DNA from: a phage
Length of the DNA: 64,000 nucleotides
Reading direction: 5' to 3' (one strand)
Sequence record: NC_104726.1
Under the pieces are notes generated by a model. That model had not been told where the DNA came from and searched no databases. It saw only the letters and a list, made by a program, of their open reading frames with translations. Within the stretch, counting starts at the first letter, position 1, and each line of letters starts with the position of its first letter. Positions 2-62,732 of this stretch are shown in pieces. The position numbers and the translations under genes are program-made.

Positions 2-1984
2 TTATTTGGTGTTATTCTTTGTATCAATCAGCTCACGGTATTCAATCATAGCAGGGGTGTCCCAATATTTCAAGCCTACATGCTTCAAAAGTGGGTATTT
101 CTTTTCCAATCTTGCAATATAGGCCTTCCCGCATTTAACTCGGTTGGCGATTAAGATTTTGGCACGATGATTTAGCTCACTGTGCTTCCACGTGGTGTTA
201 CCTTCCCACTTGTGGAAATGTGGCCGATAATTTCCAAAATCTTGCATGGGAATAATTTTCCCTAATTGTCTATACAGGCTGTCATAAGAAGTCTCATTTG
301 CTGCACGGGTCAGTAAGAATTTCCAAGCATCCTCTTTCAACAGGTGCTCCACATTCTTCTCTGTAACATACTGGCAATCAGGATCAGTCCAAAGCAGACG
401 AGATTCAGATACCAGATACAGATCTTCACCTTCAGGAATCTGAAGTGCCGCACGTACACGGTCATAATCTTGCTGGTAGATGTTACTCATCTGCCCCAGC
501 CAACAACTTCCACGTTGGATATCACCCTCATAAGGGATGCAGTGTTTAATCTTCCGGAACTCTGCCTTAGTAATACGCTCACGGCGGAAGTAACCATCCT
601 TCTCAAGTTTTTTAACCCAATAGCCTGGCTCATAATGAGTTTTTGTTTCACCTTTCTTCGCAGGTCGGCGAGGGAGCTCTGATAACAATTTGATCGTATC
701 TGCAAAGAACGGGTGGTGTGCCGCCTCTTTAAACTCTTTCACCAGATCAGTGTTCCGGCAATAGAAAACGTTGCGTCCGGTGATCTCGCTTAAGTAGTTA
801 CACTTATTTCGGTTATATTTGCCGTCTCCGTCGTTAAATACTAAATAAACTCCCCGTAAGAATTCTACCTTTCCGTAACAAGCGTAACCTATGCGGCCTT
901 TATTTAAGCCTCCAGCGAAGATCTCACAGTCCCCCAAATTTCCTAGGCCTGTCTCTTCCCATCGTTCCCACATAAAATTCTTACCGAAGATGTGCCCGAA
1001 CACTCCACTGTTCTTCATCATCTCGCGTGCTTCTGAGGATGTTTTTGCTGTCTCCAATTCCGCAACAACTTCTGCCCCACGTAAACGGATACCCTCTTTG
1101 ACAAAAGCCTCCAGGCGATCCTGGAATCCACCGTCGTCATGGCCCTCTATGGTCCATTCGCGCCCAGGGTTAATATTGCAATCCCCAATAGGAATCTCTA
1201 CACAGATTGCAGGGTAGTCTGTCAATGTTTCCAGGAATTTAGATCGGTAAGGTTGGTGACCCATTACCACGCGACTCTCGTCAGAGCTGGTATAACCTTT
1301 CAGGATAGTCATTTTCCAACCATCTTTCTCGTAGCGATACTGCGCCTCAACCTTGTCACCTTCCAGCATCTTACTGGTCATAGGGTCGGTAACGGTAAAC
1401 GGAAACTTTGCATAGCGTAGGCATGACGCAATAGCAGTGCGATATTTCAGAACATGCTCTTTCTTAACATGGAACTGAACTTTTACCCCGTTGTGCTCTT
1501 CAGTCTTCCGCTCACGGATCTTGGTAACGTTTGGGATACCCTGATCCAAGAACAATAGATATGTGCTTTCAACACCGTTGTGCACACTAATCACATCGAA
1601 AGTGTCCACCATGCTGAACGGGGCCTTTGAACCTACACCTTTATTACCTACCAGAGCGTTGCTGTTGCGCTTGGTTGACTCCCCGAGGTTCATGAAAGTG
1701 TTGCGGACCATCTCTTCTGACATACCCAATCCAACGTCCTGCACAAAGAAGTATGGTTCAAGGTCTGTAGGGGAGTGAATGATGATCGGTACATCACCCC
1801 GTCCAGACTCAACATGGGAGTCCACAGCATTGAAGATTGGTTCACGGCAGCTTGCCAGCACCTTATCTTCGTAAATCCCTTTAATGATTAGCCCAAAAGT
1901 CTCTTTGTTCAGAGAAATTGAGCCCCTGGTGACCTCCATATTTCCGGTTAGTACTGCTTTAGTTTCATTACTGTTTACAATCAT
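2..1984 (-). CDS. GHKL (Bergerat-fold) ATPase domain protein, 660 aa; C-terminal ~450 aa uncharacterised
   Basis: ATG at 1982-1984 preceded by AAGGAG; N-terminal motifs QDVGLGMSEEM, GNKGVGSKAPFS and NGVKVQF resemble the ATP-lid boxes of Hsp90/MutL/GyrB-type ATPases. Confidence 0.45.
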   Translation of the reverse strand: MIVNSNETKAVLTGNMEVTRGSISLNKETFGLIIKGIYEDKVLASCREPIFNAVDSHVESGRGDVPIIIHSPTDLEPYFFVQDVGLGMSEEMVRNTFMNLGESTKRNSNALVGNKGVGSKAPFSMVDTFDVISVHNGVESTYLLFLDQGIPNVTKIRERKTEEHNGVKVQFHVKKEHVLKYRTAIASCLRYAKFPFTVTDPMTSKMLEGDKVEAQYRYEKDGWKMTILKGYTSSDESRVVMGHQPYRSKFLETLTDYPAICVEIPIGDCNINPGREWTIEGHDDGGFQDRLEAFVKEGIRLRGAEVVAELETAKTSSEAREMMKNSGVFGHIFGKNFMWERWEETGLGNLGDCEIFAGGLNKGRIGYACYGKVEFLRGVYLVFNDGDGKYNRNKCNYLSEITGRNVFYCRNTDLVKEFKEAAHHPFFADTIKLLSELPRRPAKKGETKTHYEPGYWVKKLEKDGYFRRERITKAEFRKIKHCIPYEGDIQRGSCWLGQMSNIYQQDYDRVRAALQIPEGEDLYLVSESRLLWTDPDCQYVTEKNVEHLLKEDAWKFLLTRAANETSYDSLYRQLGKIIPMQDFGNYRPHFHKWEGNTTWKHSELNHRAKILIANRVKCGKAYIARLEKKYPLLKHVGLKYWDTPAMIEYRELIDTKNNTK

Positions 1985-2481
1985 TTATTGCGCTCCTTGT
2001 AGTAGATATGACTCCCGAATTGAGCTGTCCTCTGCATCTTTTTTGCCCATTTCGGTCGTACTTTGGTTGTATGGTAGTGTGTTGCTCCACCTGTTATGTC
2101 CATAGCCATGTATGCAACATGGTTGTTATTATAGACCTTTAGAAGCATCTTTGCAAGACTTTTAGCGTGATCCCATGAATCTTTTTCTGTCACCTTAAAA
2201 GTTTTGCCGTGGTTTGTCCACGAAAACTGGTTAGGTTGGTAGACAATCTTTCTTATAGTGTCTGGGTATTTGGGGTGAGATTTCCTGTTTAGTGTGGCAA
2301 ACCCTGATGCCAGCATACCCATCGTGCCATCCCCTCTAGCCTCCCTGTAGATATTGCATGCCAGAATGTTTTCCTTAGTATCTGAGGGCTTGCAAGTATG
2401 ATATACTTTTTGTTTTGGTGCTGCAACAACAGGCAGCGATAAAAATGCGCTCAAAATAATAGCAAAGATCTTAATTTTCAC
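1981..2481 (-). CDS. secreted SleB/CwlJ-like cell-wall hydrolase (candidate endolysin)
   Basis: GTG start at 2479-2481 with GGAG upstream; N-terminal signal-like segment MKIKIFAIILSAFLSLPVVAAP; motifs NIYREARGDG, QPNQFSW, GGATHYH, FGSHIYY typical of the SleB-type hydrolase family. Confidence 0.6.
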   Translation of the reverse strand: MKIKIFAIILSAFLSLPVVAAPKQKVYHTCKPSDTKENILACNIYREARGDGTMGMLASGFATLNRKSHPKYPDTIRKIVYQPNQFSWTNHGKTFKVTEKDSWDHAKSLAKMLLKVYNNNHVAYMAMDITGGATHYHTTKVRPKWAKKMQRTAQFGSHIYYKERNK

Positions 2482-2499
2482 AATAACTCCAAATAGAAA

Positions 2500-2519
2500 A
2501 TCCCCGCCGAAGCGGGGGA
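2500..2519 (-). terminator. hairpin CCCCGC-CGAA-GCGGGG followed by T-rich tract on minus strand
   Basis: Perfect 6-bp GC stem with 4-nt loop; minus strand continues ATTTTCTATTT; sits between genes 2531-2911 and 1981-2481. Confidence 0.4.
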
Positions 2520-2530
2520 GGTCTTAGAAA

Positions 2531-2911
2531 TTAATCGTAGTGTGCCAAAATCTCTCCATCGTTGCAAGTTCCCTCTACAAAGTTATGAAGATTCATGCAC
2601 TCATCTTGATAGAAGAATTTACCGCTTTTCAGCCGTAAGCCAAACAACTCCGCATCTCCACGATGGCAAGCCTCTACAAGTTCATAGATTTCATACGGCA
2701 ACTCTCCGTCGTCATGGAAGAACCCAGCCTTATCGTTGACATAGATGAAGAAATAATCACTGCTGTCGCAAGCGTCCAATATTTTAAACCAGATTTCATC
2801 TACATCTTTTTCTCGGATATCGATCACACAAGTGGAGCTGCATTCGTACTCCTTCTCCGGCTCCTCGGTCAATACCACCAGGTAGTTTCCCCGCTTACCT
2901 ACTTTAGCCAT
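2531..2911 (-). CDS. hypothetical protein (126 aa)
   Basis: ATG 2909-2911 with AAGGGGG upstream; no recognisable motif. Confidence 0.5.
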   Translation of the reverse strand: MAKVGKRGNYLVVLTEEPEKEYECSSTCVIDIREKDVDEIWFKILDACDSSDYFFIYVNDKAGFFHDDGELPYEIYELVEACHRGDAELFGLRLKSGKFFYQDECMNLHNFVEGTCNDGEILAHYD

Positions 2912-2920
2912 ACAACCCCC

Positions 2921-4105
2921 TTAAGCTTTAGCCAAAATGGCGCTAAACTCTTCACCAAACTCTTTTACAATCTTCATCAGGTTTGGGTATGCTTTGATCA
3001 GCTGAGCAACAATCTTGTCACGCCCTTTGCCGATAAGCAAGGCATTTCCTAAGGCATTAGGTTTCATCATCGCCATAAAGACTGAGAATACAAAATCTCG
3101 GTTCTCGTCCTTGAAGTTTTCCCAAAGGAAATCGAGGAAGTTTGCCACGCAGCTGACAAGATCTTCGTCTGAGATACTTGCATTTTCCATCATATTACGA
3201 ATAGCGATACAACCTTCAGATCCAAGAATCCACAAAATGTCTGGCTGCTTAGGACCTACGTATTCTTTGCAACCACCTGCCATAATCCGACCGATTTCAG
3301 GTAAATTGCGTTTCTTGGTGTGGTATGTCCAGATCTCTACCGCTGCAGTGTGACCAATAGCACCTTGCAGAAGAACACGGGCCATAGCGTCAGAAATAAT
3401 ACCGCTGTCAAAATCGTGCAAGATATCAGATGCAGCAACCCAAGATCGCGGTGTGGCAAAAGATGGACAATTAATCTCAGCCATGGCCTCATAATTATCG
3501 ATAGCTGATGGAACTCTTTTCAGATATCCAATTACAGAGGAGTGCACCCCATTAAGGAATGCGTAGTCCTCAATAAACACCTCTGCATTGCTTGTAACCT
3601 CTACAATGATAAAACGGTTAGCCAGAGGGGCTTCGAGCGCCGAAAGAACCGCACCATCTGTAGAACGGTTACCAGCAGCCACAAAAACAGAACCCTTAGG
3701 GAATGCATAGGTACCGCACTTGTGGTCAAGCATAATTTGCATTGCAACCTTTTGCAGGTAGTTATCTGCATGAGTGAGCTCATCCAGAAAGATAATTCCG
3801 CTCCAGTCAGGATCCGCAGGCCAAAATTCTGGAATTGCAAACACTGTACGTGTAGTTCCATCCGCCTCTACAGGGATAGGTAGCCCAGATAAGTCGGCAG
3901 GATCTTTATCTGACAGTCGCACGTCAACAAGGTTGTCATCTCGCTCACCGAACATATTATCAGCGATCTGCTTCATCACCTGGCTTTTACCCACACCCAT
4001 TGGTCCCAAAATTAGGACAGATCGGCTATGACGTTGGGCAAACTGAATAATAGCTGGCAACTCACGGACAGTGATTTGACCACTTTCGAATACGTTTCTT
4101 GACAT
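2921..4105 (-). CDS. MoxR-like AAA+ ATPase
   Basis: Walker A ILGPMGVGKSQ, Walker B IIFLDEL, sensor-like LEAPLANRFIIV; ATG 4103-4105 with GAGGA upstream. Confidence 0.65.
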   Translation of the reverse strand: MSRNVFESGQITVRELPAIIQFAQRHSRSVLILGPMGVGKSQVMKQIADNMFGERDDNLVDVRLSDKDPADLSGLPIPVEADGTTRTVFAIPEFWPADPDWSGIIFLDELTHADNYLQKVAMQIMLDHKCGTYAFPKGSVFVAAGNRSTDGAVLSALEAPLANRFIIVEVTSNAEVFIEDYAFLNGVHSSVIGYLKRVPSAIDNYEAMAEINCPSFATPRSWVAASDILHDFDSGIISDAMARVLLQGAIGHTAAVEIWTYHTKKRNLPEIGRIMAGGCKEYVGPKQPDILWILGSEGCIAIRNMMENASISDEDLVSCVANFLDFLWENFKDENRDFVFSVFMAMMKPNALGNALLIGKGRDKIVAQLIKAYPNLMKIVKEFGEEFSAILAKA

Positions 4106-4374
4106 TAGTAAAAGTCCTCTACTTGTGTGTAAGTGTTTTCAAAGTTTTCCAAAACAGATATCACATCGGATCTGTCAATATCATACGTGACTCTCCAGTT
4201 GTACGCAACCCTTTCTGCTGTTGCCTCTTCTGGCGCTAGTCGTCTGCTGGCATAAAAGAGTGTTGGAGTACACTTTCTTGCTTGCCCTCTAACTTTCCCA
4301 TAATAATATCTGTGAATATCTTTGTCAAAATTTAACTCTTTTTCTGCACGAAGTTCATATTGCTGGTATAACAT
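4105..4374 (-). CDS. hypothetical protein (89 aa)
   Basis: ATG 4372-4374 with AAGGAG upstream; stop overlaps start of downstream ATPase gene. Confidence 0.45.
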   Translation of the reverse strand: MLYQQYELRAEKELNFDKDIHRYYYGKVRGQARKCTPTLFYASRRLAPEEATAERVAYNWRVTYDIDRSDVISVLENFENTYTQVEDFY

Positions 4375-4418
4375 CTCTACTACTCCTTAAGCAGCATCCT
4401 TGCCGCCATTCCTGCCCA

Positions 4419-4799
4419 CTAAAATGCAGTCCGAATCCAGACAAGGTTCTTATCTGCCCAATCATAGAGGCAAGTCATTGCACTATTGAATTGCTCACAC
4501 GGAGGATAATCTTCTTCCATCTGACGCATAGCAGAGCCTTGTGGGTAAAGCTCCCGTGCTGCAAACCACGCGTCGTAGTCATCAACGGTGTCGAAGTAGT
4601 ATACAACATCCTCCAACTCAGGATCGAACTTTGAACTATCAGGATCCAGTTGTTCAGGGAACTTGGAGCGTAACTTGCCAGCCACAATACTTGCCAACTC
4701 GCTAACATGCTTATTGTCCCACTCCACTAGCTTCCCGTCTTCAGTGATGCGTCCTAACCACTGATCATGAAGGTCAACTGTTGTCTTCCACCGGGCCAT
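4419..4799 (-). CDS. hypothetical protein (126 aa)
   Basis: ATG start, operon context, acidic protein. Confidence 0.45.
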   Translation of the reverse strand: MARWKTTVDLHDQWLGRITEDGKLVEWDNKHVSELASIVAGKLRSKFPEQLDPDSSKFDPELEDVVYYFDTVDDYDAWFAARELYPQGSAMRQMEEDYPPCEQFNSAMTCLYDWADKNLVWIRTAF

Positions 4800-4801
4800 T
4801 A

Positions 4802-5059
4802 TCAGTCCACCTCTTCTTCTCGTTGTAGTTCAAGATACCCGTAGGTCTGGACATCTTCAAGGGTGTGGAACTCCCCATCTGCCGCTAATGCACGAACAAC
4901 TTGGCACAAAACCTTATGAGGAACTTCATCCAGACCAAGATTCAGTGCAGGGAACACCTTATCTAAGTCAACAAAATAAACGAACTGGAGCTCACCAGCT
5001 TCAAAAGGTGTATCTTCAATAAACATCTTCTCGGCATTAGTCAAGATCTGCACTTTCAT
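4802..5059 (-). CDS. hypothetical protein (85 aa)
   Basis: ATG 5057-5059 with GAGGAGG upstream. Confidence 0.45.
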   Translation of the reverse strand: MKVQILTNAEKMFIEDTPFEAGELQFVYFVDLDKVFPALNLGLDEVPHKVLCQVVRALAADGEFHTLEDVQTYGYLELQREEEVD

Positions 5060-5415
5060 TATTCTACCTCCTCTTCTTTTTCTTCGGCATTAGTTTCATG
5101 GCTACCCCACTCTGGAGTTTCCACCTCGATAGTAAACTCACGCACTACACGGTAATTGCCCATGAAGCGCTCCACTTCGTCAAGGCTTATGGAGAAGCCA
5201 TTGGCAACCAGGTCTGCAGCACCCTCTTCTACCAGGTAGTCCAGATTGGCTTCCAGAGCTTCAGGTTCAAACCCTGTCAATGCAATCAGATAACCTTTCC
5301 CTTCATCAGGGAGGACAATACATCCCAACTGATTTTCTTTAAAAAGGCAGTGACCATCATTGTTAATTGGGTGTTCATTGCAGTAAATAGCTGCACGATA
5401 AGTAACTTTAGACAT
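5059..5415 (-). CDS. hypothetical protein (~118 aa)
   Basis: Track start at 5436 is a TTG; the ATG at 5413-5415 has AAGGAG 9 nt upstream and is the likelier start. Confidence 0.45.
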   Translation of the reverse strand: MSKVTYRAAIYCNEHPINNDGHCLFKENQLGCIVLPDEGKGYLIALTGFEPEALEANLDYLVEEGAADLVANGFSISLDEVERFMGNYRVVREFTIEVETPEWGSHETNAEEKEEEVE

Positions 5416-5428
5416 CGGTAAGGTCTCC

Positions 5429-5701
5429 TTAGGCAATTGTCATTTTACATTCTTGAAATTTTAACACAAGACGGTGATTGTGTCTAGTGTCTAAAAAGAT
5501 TTTTTCAACCATCAGGCACACGGTATAACCGTCCATCTTGTTGACAACAAAATCTCCAGGATGAGGGAGGATGTCTCCCGGATTGGGGAAACATAGTCCA
5601 CTCAGAAAGGCATCGTCAGTGGTGGACTTAATAGATTTCCACACACTGTCTGCCTGAACATGTTCACCAACGTAATATACATTACCACATGCCTTCATCA
5701 T
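5429..5701 (-). CDS. hypothetical protein (~90 aa)
   Basis: Track start at 5707 is TTG; ATG at 5699-5701 preceded by GAGGG. Confidence 0.4.
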   Translation of the reverse strand: MMKACGNVYYVGEHVQADSVWKSIKSTTDDAFLSGLCFPNPGDILPHPGDFVVNKMDGYTVCLMVEKIFLDTRHNHRLVLKFQECKMTIA

Positions 5702-5703
5702 AG

Positions 5704-6603
5704 TCAAACCCTCGCATAAATTAAACTTGTATCAGTATACTTCTTTAATGGGTAAATATCCTGTCCATAGATGCAATCATTAAACACCTCATCTACCCAA
5801 AGGCTACACTTATATCCCATCATTTCTAAAACACCCATCTCTTCTTCGGTAAACTTATCACCGCTCTTGCAAGATGTCAATACCTCATTCTGAACTCTTG
5901 CTACCTCGAAGCGGTTATTGGCAATATCGCTATTGGCGATCAAATACTCACCTAGAGGGTGTGCGGCATTAAAGATGCACAGTGGACGGCTGACGTAATA
6001 GTCTCCGGGTGTATAAAAATTGTTGAGGTCTTTCACTAGAACATTCTTATCAGTCACTTCATTTATAACATCATGCATATCGCACATCTTTATATGTTTG
6101 AGGATTCCATCCCCCATCACAAAATAAAAACTTGCTGAGACACTTTCGGCATAGATCTTACTAGATCCGTTGTAGTTGTATTTTACTCGGATGCTAACGG
6201 GGGTTTTTCCTGTCGCGTTAGCCATCATCCAAAGAAATGGCAGCTCATACTTCTCCTCTGAGGAAACAAAAGGTGAGGTAGCCAGAGATCGAAAACCTCC
6301 AGAGAAGTTGAAAGTTACAGAACCGCTCCGGCGGTATGATACCGCGTATTCTACTTTTATATCGACGTACCCATTGGAATAGGTGTGTCCTTCATTATCT
6401 AAATATGTCCACTTATCAGACCCAGATACCAATCTACGCTCAATAACCTTCATCACTACAGGAATTAGTGGGTTGGTACAAACCGCTTTTGAAGTAGCTT
6501 TATCATCTAAAGCCTCGTAAATTGCAGAAAGGATGTCCCCAGCTGAAAGATTGGTTGTTATGTCCTGTTTCCACCGCGTACTAAAACTGTTAAGATTTGC
6601 CAT
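5704..6603 (-). CDS. hypothetical protein (299 aa)
   Basis: ATG 6601-6603 with GGAG upstream; first gene of the leftward unit reading out of the divergent promoter region. Confidence 0.5.
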   Translation of the reverse strand: MANLNSFSTRWKQDITTNLSAGDILSAIYEALDDKATSKAVCTNPLIPVVMKVIERRLVSGSDKWTYLDNEGHTYSNGYVDIKVEYAVSYRRSGSVTFNFSGGFRSLATSPFVSSEEKYELPFLWMMANATGKTPVSIRVKYNYNGSSKIYAESVSASFYFVMGDGILKHIKMCDMHDVINEVTDKNVLVKDLNNFYTPGDYYVSRPLCIFNAAHPLGEYLIANSDIANNRFEVARVQNEVLTSCKSGDKFTEEEMGVLEMMGYKCSLWVDEVFNDCIYGQDIYPLKKYTDTSLIYARV

Positions 6604-57867: not shown

Positions 57868-57900
57868 AAGCTTTACCCCTCAAAACAGTATAACAAAATA

Positions 57901-57918
57901 GCCCTCGTGTTAGAGGGC
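57901..57918 (-). terminator. hairpin GCCCTC-GTGTTA-GAGGGC between terminase and portal genes
   Basis: Minus strand reads the hairpin followed by TATTTTGTTATACTGTTTTG. Confidence 0.35.
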
Positions 57919-57969
57919 TAGTATCTCCGATTACTCTATTCTACCACATCTAATTAAGATTGGCAACAC

Positions 57970-58774
57970 TTAGATAAAACGCTTGAACATAGAAGGTGAT
58001 GAGATTGATGGAATCACACAAGGAAGTGCTACCTCCTCTTTCTCCAGGAAATTAATCGCAGAAGCTACACAGTCTGCCCAGTCGTCTTTTCTGTTAAATG
58101 TTGATCTTTCCCCGTTGAATTTTTCAAGTTCAGTCAGAAATGCTTCCAGAGTATCAGGATGGAAACTGGATTTTACAATTCTCACCATTCCTTGTTGGGC
58201 AAGATTGGCAAAAGGTGAGAACCTTGTCAGTTTAGATTTGTTGGAAGGCATTGGGTCTTCTTCAACCCTAAACCCTTCGGCGAGCAGGGATCTGGAGGAG
58301 GTTAAGAACTCACTCTTACCTGCCTGCCCTGGGTCCACAGAGAAGACGATTATGCAATCATCACCATCGAACTGCGCCTGTTTCCTGATGATCACATCTC
58401 GTTCACCAGCCTTTTTACAGAACTTGCCTTCCAATCCTGTGGAATACCTCCCGTCATCCACGTTCTCAGGACAATAATCACCTGACAGGTAATAAAAGCC
58501 GTCGCTATCTTTACTTACCTTAATACTGGCAGTAAAGTCAGGAAATTTATTACCGGAAGTTCTCTCGGTTCCTGCCTTATCCCATGCCCTGCAAGATACT
58601 GATCCAAGGGGTACTCTATCGGCATCACGAAGGAAAGATCTTTGAAAATAGTTTGCACCCTCAGGCTTTGCAAACCAGTTACCATGGAGAAGCTGAGCTT
58701 TTTCCAGCTCTGGTAGACCTTCGAGGAAAGCAAGGTATTCTGGGTTGTCTCTCAAACAGACAGGATTATCGAAT
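57970..58774 (-). CDS. terL: terminase large subunit, exon 3 (nuclease domain)
   Basis: AQLLHGNWFAKPEGANYF and KDDWADCVASAINF are terminase nuclease-domain motifs; in-frame TAA at 58777-58779 bounds the 5' side; no ATG at the ORF start. Confidence 0.7.
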
Positions 58775-59753
58775 CCTTATATTCAAAGGTGGTCGCAACA
58801 CCACCCTCCGCACCATTACGTGCCGCTGCATGTTACCATGCAGAGTAGACTATATCACCACCCATCTCAGGGTGCTTCGCTTTTCGAGCGCCATAGGCTT
58901 GCGCCCTACTCCCTCTCGGGATAGTCGTTGAACTACATTACCAATCGTAATTGTTTGAAATATAGGTGTAAGTCTTACGGTCTTTTATTCCTTTAACAAC
59001 ACTAAAACTTACGCCCCACTTCTTAGCTATTTTATTTACACACAAAACCCTATCACTAAGATCCTCGCAGATACCTATTATCTTGTGCTCACTTATCCTA
59101 TTAGAGGTTGGCACTTTTCTAAAGTTAAACTCTTTAGAAATATCTGGGTATACTGAGCCATTCTTTATACCACTTACAAGTGGTTGATTGACACCAAACA
59201 TTTCACAAATGTCTTTTACCCTTGCACCTTGCTCTAACAGTCTACATATTTCAAGAGCAGTGGCATCATCTAGGGACCTGTATTTATTGACATAGTCCTT
59301 TTTAAGTCCCATTTCATGAGCATGATGTGTGTTTTCCTCAGGTGTTGTCCACTCAAGGTTCCATGCGGCGTTATTCAACTTATTGCCATCAAGGTGATTT
59401 ACTTGAGTTTTCACGCTGGGATTATCATTATCAACAAAAGTCATAGCAATCACTCTGTGAACGAGCACTTGGAACTTTTTACCGTCCTCGCACAAAGTTA
59501 CCATAGCATAGCCAGTCTTTTTCTGCACATTAGGATGGAGGAATTTATTAGAATACAGACTGTAAATTCTGCCATCGTATGTAGCACAATAATGATTGTA
59601 GCCTAAAAAGCCTAAATTTTTCATTTCAAACATCTCCCTACTACAGGTTCGGAAGGGTAATTATAGCTGCTGATTGTCCGTTTAGCAATCGGATTTTCCA
59701 GCAATTAACGAAGTTATTCGACGTGCATTTCTGCACGAAGCCACTATCATTTA
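58775..59753 (-). mobile_element. group I-like intron 2 in terL (979 nt), carrying an HNH endonuclease ORF
   Basis: Begins UAAAUGAUAGUGG after exon-terminal U, ends ...UAUAAGG; core-like blocks GTTCAACGACTA (58920-58933) and AGATATAGTCTACTCTG (58841-58856) on the minus strand; boundaries inferred from frame restoration. Confidence 0.55.
58938..59633 (-). CDS. HNH homing endonuclease (intron-encoded), 231 aa
   Basis: Motif VNHLDGNKLNNAAWNLEWTTPEENTHHA; C-terminal helix-turn-helix-like repeats; ATG 59631-59633. Confidence 0.75.
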   Translation of the reverse strand: MFEMKNLGFLGYNHYCATYDGRIYSLYSNKFLHPNVQKKTGYAMVTLCEDGKKFQVLVHRVIAMTFVDNDNPSVKTQVNHLDGNKLNNAAWNLEWTTPEENTHHAHEMGLKKDYVNKYRSLDDATALEICRLLEQGARVKDICEMFGVNQPLVSGIKNGSVYPDISKEFNFRKVPTSNRISEHKIIGICEDLSDRVLCVNKIAKKWGVSFSVVKGIKDRKTYTYISNNYDW

Positions 59754-60073
59754 ATGGTTGCGCCTATGAACGAGAATGACAACGGTCTTGGCTTGATCTC
59801 TACGCCAAGTCCGTTAACCGTGGTGTATTTCTCTATCAACTCTTCTTTAGAATCTCCCCATATAAATTCACCGTCGCGTCGGATAAAATATCTTTTCTTA
59901 CCGCATTTCTCCGGATCTGGATACCCTTCATCGTCCAACCACCATCTAACCAGTTTGGCAAGCATGTGTTCTGAATCTGGGTTACAGCTGATAACCATTC
60001 TTGATGGATACTTTGACTGAGATCGCAGACGAGACATCAGATAGTCTATCTGCTCCCATTCGAATTGTGTCGT
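59754..60073 (-). CDS. terL: terminase large subunit, exon 2
   Basis: Encodes ...EWEQIDYLMSRLRSQSKYPSRMVISCNPDSEH...FIGAT; bounded by in-frame TAG (60074-60076) upstream and TGA (59747-59749) downstream. Confidence 0.6.
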
Positions 60074-60390
60074 CTATGTTCGGGCAAGGTCGCTAGTCTT
60101 GCCCCGCCATTTTTCAGGCAGCTGCATGTCTCCATGCAGACCAGACTATATCTTATAAGCGACAACAACCGCTTACCCTCCCGTTTCGAATCGCTTGATT
60201 CTACGTCTTTCGACTAGTCGTTGAACGTTCATCCTCTCGGATGCTTCGCTGCGGATTATCTAAATTAACACACTGTTACCATACCTTCGATCTCTCTTCG
60301 AAGCCTCTATCATGTTACCATGACAGGTTGGTGGTGTCAATAATAAAGATTTCCCCGCAATTAGGGAGGTTTTACGAGAGCTACAAATTA
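60074..60390 (-). mobile_element. group I-like intron 1 in terL (317 nt), no ORF
   Basis: Starts UAAUUUGUAGCUCUC right after the Walker B codons, ends ...ACAUAG; contains AATTGCGGGGAAA, AATCCGCAGC, GTTCAACGACTAGTC and AAGATATAGTCTGG blocks on the minus strand. Confidence 0.6.
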
Positions 60391-60816
60391 ACCCTCATCG
60401 AAGCAAACCATGGTGTACTCAAGCCCTTGATGGTTAAGCTTATCTTGTACATACTCCATGTGGCAGTATTTTACAACAGCTCCCTTTTTGCTTCTATCCC
60501 ACTTACCAGTGTTAGGATCAAACCGTGGAAAAATGAACTTATGATCCTTCTCTCTGAACTTTGGCTTAATGTTTTCAGGCAGATCACTATAAATAGCTAC
60601 TGCTTTAGGCCATAGTCCACCCTCACCCTCCAACTGTGGAGTTGTTCTTCGGAACATAACCACAGAGCTGTGGGGGTCATCAATAATTTTAAGCGGCATC
60701 AACTGCAAAAGGAACGACTTGCCAGACCCTGCGGCACCGCCGATTACCAAAATATCTGCATCGTTTTCGAGGATCATCTTCTGCTTTTCAGAACACGGTC
60801 CGTAAATCTTAGACAT
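60391..60816 (-). CDS. terL: terminase large subunit, exon 1 (ATPase Walker A/B)
   Basis: Walker A GGAAGSGKS, Walker B MVCFDEG; ATG 60814-60816 with AAAGGAGAGAGG upstream. Confidence 0.75.
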
Positions 60817-61103
60817 TAACCTCTCTCCTTTGGAAACAGTGTTCTAATATAGTCTTGCAAAATGATCAATTTAGCTCTATCATTGCTACAAGACAGATTA
60901 TTATCCCTCATAATGCCAGAATTCACCGCATCTGGCGCACCTTTCTTTAAAGGTATAGCTTTAGCAGGTGGTTTCATGGCACCTTCCGGGGGTTTAACAA
61001 TCAACCTTCCTACATCTGGAGGGTCAATCTTGTATTCTTTCTCAACACTGGTTGCACACCCACATAATAACAAGCACGCAATAAACAGTGTAGCAACTCT
61101 CAT
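60816..61103 (-). CDS. o-spanin (outer-membrane lipoprotein, Rz1-like)
   Basis: Signal/lipobox-like FIACLLLCGC, Pro-rich DPPDV...KPPEG...KPPAKAIP, C-terminal PKERG resembling the lambda Rz1 C-terminus; start overlaps the i-spanin stop. Confidence 0.6.
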   Translation of the reverse strand: MRVATLFIACLLLCGCATSVEKEYKIDPPDVGRLIVKPPEGAMKPPAKAIPLKKGAPDAVNSGIMRDNNLSCSNDRAKLIILQDYIRTLFPKERG

Positions 61104-61498
61104 CGATCCTCCTGATTGATACTCTCATTATAAATATCTATAAGCTGATCAGGGAGTGTTGACTTCTTACCTTCAGGTGATTGGAGGTAGATAATCTGCT
61201 TTTCTTTACCTGCCTTCTCAGCCATGTTTAATTTATCCTGTAGGTCAGAAAGAGATTTTTCAAGGTTTTTAACCTCCTCTGCGTGGCCCATTTTAATTTT
61301 GTCGGCCTGCTTTTGTTGCTGATCAAGGATCCGTTCCCACTTTAACTCTGTTGCTGACACACCCTCTTGGTAGGCATCATTAAGCTTAGAGTTAAACCAA
61401 TACACGGCCCCAAGATAAGCTGTACCTATAGCCGCTGCAAAAACTAAACCTTTTATGATCCCTCTATACCTACTCAGCCATGTTAAACCTGAAATCAT
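61100..61498 (-). CDS. i-spanin (inner-membrane spanin, Rz-like)
   Basis: N-terminal hydrophobic helix then charged coiled-coil periplasmic domain; paired with the downstream lipoprotein gene. Confidence 0.6.
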   Translation of the reverse strand: MISGLTWLSRYRGIIKGLVFAAAIGTAYLGAVYWFNSKLNDAYQEGVSATELKWERILDQQQKQADKIKMGHAEEVKNLEKSLSDLQDKLNMAEKAGKEKQIIYLQSPEGKKSTLPDQLIDIYNESINQEDR

Positions 61499-61919: not shown

Positions 61920-61996
61920 TGGTCTCCACGGAGTGATTCGAACACTCGACCTCCTGATCCCAAATCAGGCGCTCTACCAAGCTGAGCTACGCGGAG
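61920..61996 (-). tRNA. tRNA-Pro (anticodon TGG)
   Basis: Manual cloverleaf: acceptor CTCCGCG/CGTGGAG, anticodon loop TTTGGGA, T-loop TTCGAAT, encoded CCA. Confidence 0.75.
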
Positions 61997-62007
61997 TATT
62001 TACTATT

Positions 62008-62082
62008 TGGTGGCCCTGGGTGGAATTGAACCACCGTCTGGCGATTATGAGTCGCTTGCTTGAACCTTCCAGCTACAGGGCC
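62008..62082 (-). tRNA. tRNA-Met or Ile2 (anticodon CAT)
   Basis: Acceptor GGCCCTG/CAGGGCC, anticodon loop CTCATAA, T-arm GGTGG-TTCAATT-CCACC, CCA. Confidence 0.7.
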
Positions 62083-62083
62083 T

Positions 62084-62159
62084 TGGTGCTGATGGCAGGA
62101 CTTTAACCTACAACCTATTGATTACAAATCAATTGCACTACCGATTTTGCTACATCAGC
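62084..62159 (-). tRNA. tRNA-Thr (anticodon TGT), non-canonical T-loop
   Basis: Acceptor GCTGATG/CATCAGC, anticodon loop TTTGTAA, T-loop TTAAAGT (A where C56 is expected), CCA. Confidence 0.6.
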
Positions 62160-62164
62160 AAAAA

Positions 62165-62263
62165 GGTGCTAGGTGATGGAATCGAACCACCTATGTATTC
62201 AACGACTACCTCGTCTATTTTCAGGATTAAAAATCCTCGCCCTTGCCAAAGGGCTTACCTAGC
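62165..62263 (-). tRNA. atypical 99-nt tRNA-like gene (anticodon ambiguous)
   Basis: Perfect 7-bp acceptor GCTAGGT/ACCTAGC, D-stem GCCC/GGGC, T-arm GGTGG-TTCGATT-CCATC, but 47 nt between D and T arms and no encoded CCA. Confidence 0.4.
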
Positions 62264-62361
62264 TCAGTATGTTGACCATGTTGCTAGTCGGCGATGACGA
62301 CTGTAACATTTGATAATCCGGTTCTGCTTCCGACTTTCGCTTAATTACAAGGTCAACAATG

Positions 62362-62452
62362 TGGCGGAGAGTAATGGAATCGAACCATCATCGAGTCATC
62401 CTCAACGGGACGGTTTTCAAGACCGCTTGAGCACCATTGCTCCCTACCCTCC
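62362..62452 (-). tRNA. tRNA-Ser (anticodon TGA), long variable arm
   Basis: Acceptor GGAGGGT/ACTCTCC, anticodon loop CTTGAAA, T-loop TTCGATT, CCA. Confidence 0.7.
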
Positions 62453-62566
62453 TTTATAAATAATACTGATAATGACACTGATTTTCGAGCAGTTAGTGAC
62501 TAGTATAAACGACGATAAATATCAATGCCATTATCTGTATTATTTATGCATCTAAAAATATAAATT

Positions 62567-62653
62567 TGGTGGGGAGTGGTGGAGTCGAACCACCCGAGTC
62601 GCAATGACAATAGATTTACAGTCTACACCGCTACCTCTACGGGATAACTCCCC
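62567..62653 (-). tRNA. tRNA-Tyr (anticodon GTA), long variable arm
   Basis: Acceptor GGGGAGT/ACTCCCC, anticodon loop CTGTAAA, T-loop TTCGACT, CCA. Confidence 0.75.
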
Positions 62654-62657
62654 AATT

Positions 62658-62732
62658 TGGCACCCCGTACTGGACTCGAACCAGTGTCAACGGCTTAGAA
62701 GGCCGCTGCTTTATCCACTAAGCTAACAGGGC
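62658..62732 (-). tRNA. tRNA-Arg (anticodon TCT)
   Basis: Acceptor GCCCTGT/ACGGGGT (two G-U pairs), anticodon loop CTTCTAA, T-loop TTCGAGT, CCA. Confidence 0.7.

Follow-up and report, generated by a model that had tools for sequence, protein, structure and literature searches.

A putative I-HmuI-type HNH homing endonuclease gene in the P6 loop of a predicted self-splicing group I intron in the terL gene of an rV5-like coliphage

The open reading frame (ORF) at 58938..59633 of the window analysed here (64,000 nucleotides of phage DNA, record NC_104726.1; terL and the parts of it described below lie on the minus strand) very probably encodes an HNH homing endonuclease of the I-HmuI type, and is looped out of P6 in a group I intron, predicted to be self-splicing, of the large terminase gene terL. 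Judged by its sequence, the source phage is an rV5-like (Vequintavirus) coliphage, the window being ~97.4% identical to coliphage rV5 by DNA comparison. The element itself is already known, as it has been both annotated and published for rV5: on the basis of BLASTX, Kropinski et al. 2013 (PMC3606486) described a terL divided among three segments and, within an intervening sequence, a homing endonuclease of the HNH class, and in the rV5 record (DQ832317 / NC_011041) terL is entered as a three-part join, with ORF65 / gp066 labelled ‘HNH homing endonuclease’. The window and rV5 have the element, its insertion site (the second intervening sequence) and the three-exon terL layout in common, and the differences are allelic only (ORF DNA 98% identical with a single amino-acid difference, R193K; intron 2 97.9% identical). 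The rV5 paper did not describe a ribozyme structure, the position of the ORF in P6 or a survey of alleles, and these are the subject of the present analysis.

The three terL exons were delimited from the ORF list, profile matches and, for the junctions, mapping against the intron-less terL alleles of relatives (for example, PDX for intron 1). Exon 1 (60391..60816; 426 nt, codons 1-142) matches Terminase_6N and PHROG_979/9526, carries the Walker A motif (GAAGSGKS) and ends in ...MVCFDEG, while exon 2 (59754..60070; 317 nt, with Pfam and PHROG matches) ends in ...FIGAT-AU| and exon 3 (57970..58774; 805 nt including the stop codon) encodes the nuclease (RNaseH-like) domain and matches Terminase_6C and PHROG_979. 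Read from the sequence only, the intron 1 site falls directly after the D-E of Walker B (CFDEG|) and the intron 2 site just past the codons for the ...FIGAT / ...IGAT motif. Splicing in silico gives a coding sequence (CDS) of 1548 nt and 515 aa. Because removal of 58775..59753 brings back an intact TerL frame, with 514 of 515 residues identical to the uninterrupted TerL of MaxTheCat, the ORF is not an exon of another gene, an outcome that the sequence-only reading had named as fatal to its proposal. The 231-aa ORF lies wholly within intron 2 as that reading stated, both in the ORF list and by the mapped intron ends. A sequence search of the spliced TerL against solved structures returned nothing at E <= 0.01. 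The 448-aa N-terminal terL piece of phage TH18 is without any Pfam match.

Intron 2 (58775..59753) is a 979-nt group I intron, predicted to be self-splicing, whose ends were set by its precise absence from the terL alleles of naswa, ev146, MaxTheCat and other relatives, the intron-less alleles that the earlier reading had suggested looking for. Its 5' splice site follows the U of exon CCAU|, and this U is wobble-paired (U-G) to the guide sequence GUGG. The P1 pairing CCAU|/GUGG is invariant in 10 sequences; the 3' end reads ..UAUAAGG|, with G as the final base. The 5' part of the ribozyme (59666..59753) comprises P1, P2, the 5' strand of P3, P4, P5 and the base of P6, and is 100% identical to the ORF-less intron of RudolfGeigy. 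The 3' part (58775..58933) comprises the base of P6, P7, P7.1, P7.2, the 3' strand of P3, P8, the 3' strand of P7, P9, P9.1 and P9.2, and is 97.5% identical to the ORF-less allele. Together these make up a canonical core, with a P3/P7 pseudoknot, P4-P6, extra P7.1/P7.2 helices, P8, P9-P9.2 and a terminal G. The window intron stays under the Rfam RF00028 gathering score of 50 because the ORF splits the match into two halves (31.2 and 24.4 bits), while the natural ORF-less allele scores 95.6 bits (E = 4.6e-24) and the C7 intron 87.5 bits. Across 70 pairs and 10 sequences, 98.9% of cells pair, compared with 33-45% when the partners are slid; double (compensatory) changes occur in 29 of the 70 pairs, and the observed values were reached by none of 500 shuffles. 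Covariation was present in every variable helix, P7 being invariant and thus uninformative. The Rfam score of the ORF-less allele and the covariation bear out the placement of the ORF in a bona fide group I intron of terL.

These structural data bear on a quite different account of the split gene, in which a free-standing endonuclease interrupts terL without RNA splicing and the TerL polypeptides assemble after translation. The gene mobE in nrdA of Aeromonas phage Aeh1 is the model for such an unspliced split gene, and the databases could be read in the same way, as in many related GenBank records terL appears as two or three separate CDSs, called ‘terminase’ or ‘hypothetical’, and the endonuclease carries no name. 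However, the sequences on either side of the ORF fold to a group I core that is complete and covaries extensively, the 5' splice site has its U-G pair and the intron its terminal G, excision restores the frame exactly, and exon 2 lacks a separate start signal at its true 5' end. Moreover, the presumably homologous terL group I intron of Pectobacterium phage CB7 (Certrevirus, Vequintavirinae), which also bears an HNH gene, splices in vivo as found by RT-PCR (PMC7344957). The comparison of CB7 with the window covers the host gene, the HNH class and the subfamily, all of which are shared. An unspliced terL is therefore very improbable, and a spliced group I intron is the reading followed here.

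In its architecture, intron 2 can also be likened to the td, nrdB and sunY introns of phage T4, which belong to subgroup IA2 and have endonuclease ORFs looped out of a peripheral stem, P7.1/P7.2 helices, ORF-less and ORF-bearing variants and conserved coding insertion sites. For the intron described here, the Rfam alignment shows the P7.1/P7.2 insertion. The T4 enzymes I-TevI and I-TevII are of the GIY-YIG class, and the T4 ORFs are under T4 late or middle promoters.

The protein itself is best described as an intact HNH_3 (PF13392) / I-HmuI-type HNH homing endonuclease, with activity predicted from its sequence and modelled fold. The HNH_3 profile search proposed earlier returned a match above the cut-off (28.0 bits versus a gathering score of 24.8, E = 1.7e-6, residues 57-102), and no Pfam NUMOD family matched the window protein at E <= 0.1, so that this second expectation failed. 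Some remote homologues have precomputed NUMOD4 (PF07463) matches over the N-terminal domain. In addition, the protein matched PHROG_59 ‘HNH endonuclease’ (E = 6e-51) and had full-length homologues (best E = 1e-152), and with these matches it is not a chance ORF. The nuclease core of the beta-beta-alpha metal type was placed at 59322..59465 (residues 57-104 in 231-aa numbering) from Pfam HNH_3 and the alignment to I-HmuI, and includes H80, N92, N101 and H104. It contains the HNH motif as first quoted, N79-H80-LDGNKLNN...N92-LEW...EE-N101. The columns H59, H80, N92-L-E-W and H104 are invariant in the family, and those of the catalytic His and the metal-binding Asn/His are either invariant or conserved to at least 90% in family members down to 28% identity. 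An AlphaFold2 model (mean pLDDT 86.8) consists of an N-terminal beta domain, a beta-beta-alpha HNH domain with the strand-strand-helix at residues 74-104, and two duplicated helix-turn-helix (HTH) modules. The latter, in tandem at 58983..59267 (residues ~123-158 and 182-217), each have three helices and align with one another as an internal repeat (E = 8e-6), in agreement with the C-terminal HTH-like repeats seen in the letters; Pfam HTH_23 fell just short of its cut-off (24.2 versus 24.6 bits), and HTH_5 and HTH_7 were also near threshold.

I-HmuI (PDB 1U3E) was both the best sequence match (E = 3e-11, 27% identity) and the sole significant fold match (Foldseek E = 3.1e-9, probability 1.0, 171 of 174 residues aligned), which, with the HNH_3 score, upholds the endonuclease identity. 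The Foldseek TM-scores were low (0.42/0.54), because the model, lacking DNA, does not recover the extended arrangement of the several domains. Both proteins share the order of parts, namely an N-terminal beta-sheet DNA-binding domain, the HNH core and a C-terminal HTH, and both are encoded in phage group I introns, although the window protein is 54 residues longer with its second, duplicated HTH module and its host gene is terL rather than the DNA polymerase gene of Bacillus phage SPO1. The window phage also has a Gram-negative host, unlike that of I-HmuI, and nicking and target are predicted for the window enzyme by analogy. H80 aligns with the catalytic H75 of I-HmuI and N101 with N96. However, the position of the acidic metal ligand Asp74 is occupied by Asn79, as it is by Asn in at least 90% of the family, and the activity of the window protein therefore cannot be assumed, though Asn79 might still bind metal.

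Comparisons among homologues indicate that the ORF is under strong purifying selection. Its dN/dS is 0.01-0.05, and the variable codons include 32 with synonymous changes only and 4 that change the amino acid. The HNH protein of TH18 is 82% identical to that of the window, with synonymous sites saturated. In YP-6, by comparison, dS is 0.36 in the terL exons versus 0.085 in the HNH ORF.

Intron 2 occurs in several states among relatives. In a survey of ~118 related phage records at both terL sites, each site was found in three states (no intron, an intron lacking an ORF, and an intron that bears one); at the intron 2 site, 14 records carried the HNH ORF, 9 an ORF-less intron and ~91-94 were empty. 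These states are scattered over the exon tree and the HNH-bearing alleles are polyphyletic. For example, HNH-bearing PDX is separated from ev146, whose site is empty, by 8 differences in 1388 exon nt. The intron with its ORF also occurs at the identical site in distant phages whose exons have diverged greatly. The suggestion that intron 2 is a likely mobile element thus gains from the presence/absence polymorphism, the polyphyly and an intron more conserved than its host exons. At both sites, a single silent base distinguishes intron-bearing from empty alleles. At site 2 this is position -3 (CDS nt 741), where intron-bearing alleles always have C, which pairs with the guide, and empty alleles have A. 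Past this base, the intron-bearing alleles share no long exon haplotype around site 2, and the flanks are mosaic. A direct footprint of conversion by the endonuclease is thus missing, and the pattern amounts to short tracts or later recombination.

The scattered states fit ongoing homing, which would proceed as follows. In a mixed infection, the enzyme would bind a long stretch of an intron-less terL through its N-terminal beta domain and two HTH modules and cut close to the insertion site, probably by a nick in a single strand like that made by I-HmuI. The intron would then be copied into the empty site during recombinational repair off the intron-bearing genome, together with a few flanking exon bases, in particular the silent C of CDS nt 741, a pairing partner of the guide sequence. 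Part of the scattered presence could instead come from ordinary recombination in co-infected cells, with no homing by the endonuclease.

In a rival reading, the ORF is intact and conserved but no longer drives mobility, encoding a nuclease-dead DNA-binding protein, a maturase-like splicing helper or a regulator, with presence and absence produced by general recombination and occasional precise loss. The asparagine in place of Asp74 is in keeping with this, purifying selection shows that a function is kept but not which one, and the 9 records that retain intron 2 without the ORF imply that the ORF is dispensable for maintenance of the intron. Against these points, the catalytic His and the metal-binding columns are (near-)invariant over the whole range of the family, the small divergence of the YP-6 intron relative to its exons and the recurrence of one element at one site in distant phages point to lateral spread, and the ORF-less alleles evidently work in viable phages, so that no protein helper is needed. 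To our knowledge, no HNH maturase has been described. Loss of mobility is accordingly an unlikely explanation, and a homing endonuclease is preferred.

The survey also weighs on whether the HNH protein could be a packaging cofactor of the terminase, of the HK97 gp74 type, rather than a selfish element. Its location within the terminase gene would suit such a role, and the idea has been raised for terminase-associated HNH genes (PMC7344957). However, the ORF is lacking in ~100 of the 118 close relatives and is thus dispensable for packaging; RudolfGeigy and MaxTheCat are viable without it, and the nine natural ORF-less records speak against a packaging defect from its loss. Furthermore, the protein has the HNH_3 / I-HmuI architecture with sequence-reading DNA-binding modules, and its gene is embedded in a ribozyme loop instead of standing beside terS and terL as an operon member. 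A packaging role has hardly any likelihood, the lowest of the alternatives considered, and the selfish homing endonuclease is again favoured.

Within intron 2, the ORF forms part of a 732-nt cassette (58934..59665) that includes its own P6 extension stem, a -10 element, a Shine-Dalgarno sequence and the HNH ORF, with bounds taken from BLAST and direct alignment with RudolfGeigy. ORF-less alleles have a 21-nt hairpin (CAAGCCUGAAUAUUCAGGAAG) in place of the cassette. Simple deletion of the ORF was considered as the origin of these alleles and rejected, as the sequence of this P6 hairpin is unrelated to the ORF-type P6 stem. The ORF probably starts at its second ATG (59624), giving an endonuclease gene at 58938..59624 and a protein of 228 aa instead of the 231 aa of the maximal ORF to 59633. 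This start is likely because a Shine-Dalgarno sequence, GGGAG (59634..59638), lies 9 nt ahead of the second ATG, whereas it adjoins the first, and because distant homologues begin at MKNL with the same GGAG spacing (L023, L028, L029 and L030); the ORF of relatives is likewise annotated as 228 aa. A consensus scan also found a putative sigma-70-like promoter (TTGCTA-17-TATAAT, 59660..59688, 10 of 12 matches), with the -35 in the P5 loop and the -10 formed by the 5' strand of the ORF-type P6 stem. Equivalent elements occur in the distant ORF-bearing homologues (TTGACA-17-TATAAT in L023 and L029, TTGATA-17-TATAAT in L030 and TTTACA-17-TATATT in L028), and the -10 element is missing from the ORF-less alleles. 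The ORF thus probably has its own promoter and Shine-Dalgarno sequence within the intron. At the other end, its last codon and stop (UGG UAA) are part of the 3' strand of P6, and it is therefore proposed that translation and ribozyme folding are mutually exclusive on one RNA molecule.

A more speculative view, which we consider possible but doubtful, is that the endonuclease gene is more than a passenger of intron 2 and forms a self-contained cassette (ORF, P6 stem and the -10 half of the promoter) that can enter or leave a ribozyme already in place, separately from the homing of the intron, with the P5 loop of the ribozyme supplying the -35 half. If this were true, every stage of the homing cycle (empty site, ORF-less intron and ORF-bearing intron) could be seen in natural Vequintaviruses, at two sites of a single essential gene and among phages with terL exons less than 1% different. 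The element has little discovery value in itself, being an ordinary member of the class of phage selfish DNA that is understood best. Nearly identical culturable coliphages, including phages of the BASEL collection, have the empty, ORF-less and ORF-bearing forms at both sites, and such an allele series would be a convenient system in which to measure homing, co-conversion and the gain and loss of endonucleases. In addition, the exact splice junctions permit a correct joined annotation of terL.

Intron 1 (60071..60390) is a 320-nt ORF-less group I intron, recognised by its Rfam RF00028 match (84 bits versus a gathering score of 50, E = 4e-21) and its precise absence from PDX, MaxTheCat, FFH2 and other relatives. 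Its 5' splice site follows a U (GGU|), its final base is G and nearly the whole of its length is ribozyme. Its P6 resembles the 21-nt P6 hairpin of the ORF-less intron 2 in form but not in sequence. The description of intron 1 as ORF-less holds for the window genome but does not extend to its relatives, where about half of the copies bear an Endonuclease VII-type ORF in P8, so that intron 1 also belongs to a mobile-intron lineage. For example, in HdK5, ev146, phiWec193 and A142 the P8 hairpin (~60157-60174 in the window) is exchanged for a 582-nt block encoding an Endonuclease_7 protein.

At the other end of the gene, an Rfam Phe_leader match at 57892-58010 was dismissed as chance (24 bits versus a gathering score of 55, E = 0.77); it overlies the terL terminator, an intrinsic-terminator-like hairpin 3' of terL at 57899..57920, and the rV5 record has a Rho-independent terminator annotated at the equivalent place.

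Over positions 57900-60900 the window shares 97.4% identity with coliphage rV5, a member of the genus Vequintavirus, and 96-99% with over 100 records of related phages. Three minus-strand ORF fragments within it match PHROG_979 ('terminase large subunit'), two with Terminase_6N (60388-60816 and 59747-60037) and one with Terminase_6C (57970-58755), and the 231-aa HNH ORF (58938-59633, minus) lies between the second and third. In rV5 records DQ832317 and NC_011041, terL is annotated as a three-part join ('ORF64ABC') and the equivalent of the HNH ORF as ORF65, 'HNH homing endonuclease', and terL is likewise annotated as interrupted in LL12 and the BASEL phages. Kropinski et al. 2013 on rV5 contains a section 'Introns in terminase' and credits Shub with help in locating the intron (PMC3606486), and in the related phage CB7 splicing of the terL HNH intron has been shown by RT-PCR (PMC7344957). 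The HNH ORF and its intron are an already known, ordinary member of the phage group I intron/HNH homing endonuclease class, to which we add exact junctions, a corrected start codon, the location of the ORF in P6, covariation support, a candidate internal promoter and an allele survey.

Exon-intron boundaries were set by comparing the window with relatives lacking one or both insertions, among which precise empty alleles exist. On the minus strand, terL comprises exon 1 (60816-60391, 426 nt), intron 1 (60390-60071, 320 nt), exon 2 (60070-59754, 317 nt), intron 2 (59753-58775, 979 nt) and exon 3 (58774-57970, 805 nt). An exon U precedes both introns (GGU| and CAU|) and both end in G. Joined in silico, the exons give a 1548-nt CDS whose 515-aa product matches the uninterrupted TerL of the relative MaxTheCat at 514 of 515 residues. 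The mapped boundaries and the restored TerL therefore place the HNH ORF wholly within intron 2, as the sequence-only reading had proposed, and show that it is not an exon of another gene. As read from sequence, intron 1 directly follows the Walker B-like ...MVCFDEG and intron 2 follows ...FIGAT-I; comparison of the spliced TerL with solved structures found no terminase similar enough to check these placements.

Both insertions are group I introns. The Rfam Intron_gpI model (gathering score 50) gives 84 bits for intron 1; with its ribozyme split by the ORF, intron 2 of the window yields only two half-matches below threshold (31.2 and 24.4 bits). Nine related records carry at the same site a 268-nt, ORF-less intron 2 that scores 95.6 bits (E = 4.6e-24) and is identical to the window ribozyme in its 5' part and 97.5% identical in its 3' part. 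Ten intron-2 cores, with ORF interiors removed, were aligned (the window, rV5, the more distant TH18, four metagenomic/Logan homologues and three ORF-less alleles), and pairs were counted on a hand-drawn P1-P9.2 structure including the P3/P7 pseudoknot. Paired cells reached 98.9%, versus 33-45% with partners slid, a measure favoured by the structure having been drawn from the window sequence; the double-change counts, which are not so biased, show changes on both sides in 29 of 70 pairs. None of 500 shuffles reached the observed values. Compensatory changes occur in P2, P3, P5, P7.1, P7.2, P8, P9, P9.1 and P9.2, while P1, P4 and P7 are invariant and thus uninformative. In silico, intron 2 thus has the structure of a ribozyme and its removal restores the TerL reading frame exactly; these results contradict the alternative that terL is a split gene that remains unspliced, which fits the data poorly.

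A clean block distinguishes intron 2 with the ORF from intron 2 without it: in the latter, a 21-nt hairpin stands in place of window 59665-58934 (732 nt). Two basal P6 pairs (G-C...G-U) are common to both forms. Beyond them, UAUA(A)UUACC pairs with GGUAAUGUA to extend the ORF-type P6 stem, whose 3' strand includes the last codon and stop of the HNH ORF (UGG UAA). This stem covaries in homologues, for example as UCAC/GUGA in L023 and L030. The block boundaries and this pairing place the HNH ORF in the loop of P6. The hairpin of the ORF-less form, CAAGCCUGAAUAUUCAGGAAG (RudolfGeigy and relatives L018-L022), has no sequence relation to the ORF-type stem, although the remaining ribozyme is 97-100% identical; had the ORF simply been deleted, such an unrelated hairpin would not be expected.

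The maximal 231-aa ORF exists as first read, but the protein itself most likely starts at the second ATG (59624) and is 228 aa long, because the Shine-Dalgarno GGGAG abuts the first ATG and lies 9 nt before the second, the MKNL start of distant homologues has the same spacing, and in L023 a stop codon in the same frame lies just upstream. The proposed HNH identity was borne out by an above-threshold match to Pfam HNH_3, while Pfam NUMOD profiles, also suggested at that stage, gave no match. The best PDB sequence match is I-HmuI (1U3E; E = 3e-11), whose catalytic H75 and metal-binding N96 align with H80 and N101 of the 231-aa ORF; the position of I-HmuI Asp74 is Asn in the window protein. In an AlphaFold2 model (pLDDT 86.8), a beta domain at the N-terminus is accompanied by a beta-beta-alpha core and two modules of three helices each, and I-HmuI was the model's sole significant Foldseek match (E = 3e-9; 171 of 174 residues aligned). 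The two helix-turn-helix modules, foreseen as C-terminal repeats, are internal duplicates (E = 8e-6). The ORF is intact in all nine copies examined, with dN/dS against the window of 0.01-0.05; eight close alleles have 32 variable codons with synonymous changes only and four that change the amino acid, and the TH18 protein retains 82% identity though synonymous sites are saturated. In silico, the enzyme is I-HmuI-like, intact and under selection.

A candidate sigma-70-like promoter (TTGCTA-17-TATAAT, 59660-59688, minus) lies upstream of the HNH ORF, its -35 element coinciding with the ribozyme P5 loop and its -10 with the 5' strand of the P6 stem in its ORF-type form. In distant homologues that bear the ORF, this promoter is perfect or nearly so (TTGACA-17-TATAAT in L023 and L029); ORF-less intron 2 alleles lack the -10, and in some the -35 has decayed. 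We infer that the HNH ORF would be expressed from this internal promoter. A promoter-like TTGACA-17-TAACAT with an extended -10 TG also occurs inside intron 1 (60312-60340, minus), upstream of the P8 position that holds an Endonuclease VII ORF in relatives, and may be either a remnant of that ORF or a signal already in place for it.

The distribution of intron states supports mobility. Among about 118 related records, the HNH ORF is present in 14, site 2 is empty in about 91-94 and the ORF-less intron 2 occurs in 9; this absence from most relatives contradicts a role for the HNH protein as a packaging cofactor, a reading that fits the data poorly. Intron 1 is present in 57 records. It was described as ORF-less, which holds in the window, but about 30 of the 57 carry an Endonuclease_7-type ORF in P8, the rest being ORF-less like the window copy. 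In those with the ORF, among them HdK5, ev146, phiWec193 and A142, a 582-nt block takes the place of the P8 hairpin (window about 60157-60174) and codes for an Endonuclease VII-type protein (PF02945, E = 2e-21), as at L003 2546-3136 and L007 1565-2155; an entire hairpin is exchanged here, as it is in intron 2, and not merely a loop insertion.

Across 20 sampled genomes, eight of nine combinations of site 1 and site 2 states were found. HNH-bearing alleles are scattered on the terL exon tree; HNH-bearing PDX and ev146, with site 2 empty, differ at 8 of 1388 exon positions, and between YP-6 and the window dS is far higher for the exons (0.36) than for the endonuclease ORF (0.085). The identical site (..GG/CA-ACC-AU|) holds the same intron and ORF in TH18 and, within very different exons, in L023 (nepoznato-like), L028, L029 and L030. 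In two further relatives, L026 (2501-3169) and L027, HNH genes of 41-42% identity lie inside related group I introns elsewhere in terL, next to the Walker B codons, so this endonuclease/intron family has come to use several target sites in the gene. The observation of an HNH ORF in intron 2 is confirmed, and its interpretation as a homing endonuclease within a mobile intron is supported; conservation of the catalytic columns, together with the signs of lateral spread, argues against an immobile, domesticated protein, which accounts poorly for the data.

Exon bases flanking the insertions also track intron state. At site 2, CDS nt 741 (window 59756) is C in 13/13 intron-bearing and A in 7/7 empty alleles; in P1, the guide sequence pairs with the C. 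The corresponding site 1 bases are nt 426 (60391), T in intron-bearing versus C/A in empty alleles, and nt 429 (60068), A versus G. All three positions are silent, lie within 3 nt of an insertion site and separate the two states perfectly in the 20 genomes, and the intron-bearing bases are those required for the U-G splice-site pair and P1 pairing. No long co-conversion tract is visible around the sites, because the flanks are mosaic beyond these bases. By analogy with I-HmuI and other phage introns, the terL introns would be spliced, the HNH enzyme would nick the empty terL allele site-specifically, and repair during mixed infection would copy the intron.

Several further observations concern the relatives and neighbouring genes. 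The metagenomic L027 terL (ENA ERZ650158 contig, 1958-5039) contains three separate HNH_3 ORFs in tandem. TH18 (L013), whose HNH intron 2 is 78% identical in DNA to the window, has a first 'terminase large subunit' piece (4566-5912, minus) of 448 aa versus 142 aa; it gave no match in Pfam and may reflect a further insertion, a fusion or a mis-called ORF. About 18 'UNVERIFIED: Campylobacter phage' records (GenBank MG0656xx, e.g. A142, A147, C7 and C11) are Vequintavirus genomes, 96-98% identical to the window's coliphage region and spanning the full range of terL intron states, and their host label looks doubtful. Upstream of terL, the genes at 60816-61103 and 61100-61498 (minus) correspond to o-spanin and i-spanin as annotated in relatives, the o-spanin stop overlapping the terL start. 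Just upstream of this spanin-terL block lies a cluster of six tRNA matches (61923-62732, minus), whose rV5 counterpart has annotated tRNA-Pro, Met, Thr and Ser genes.
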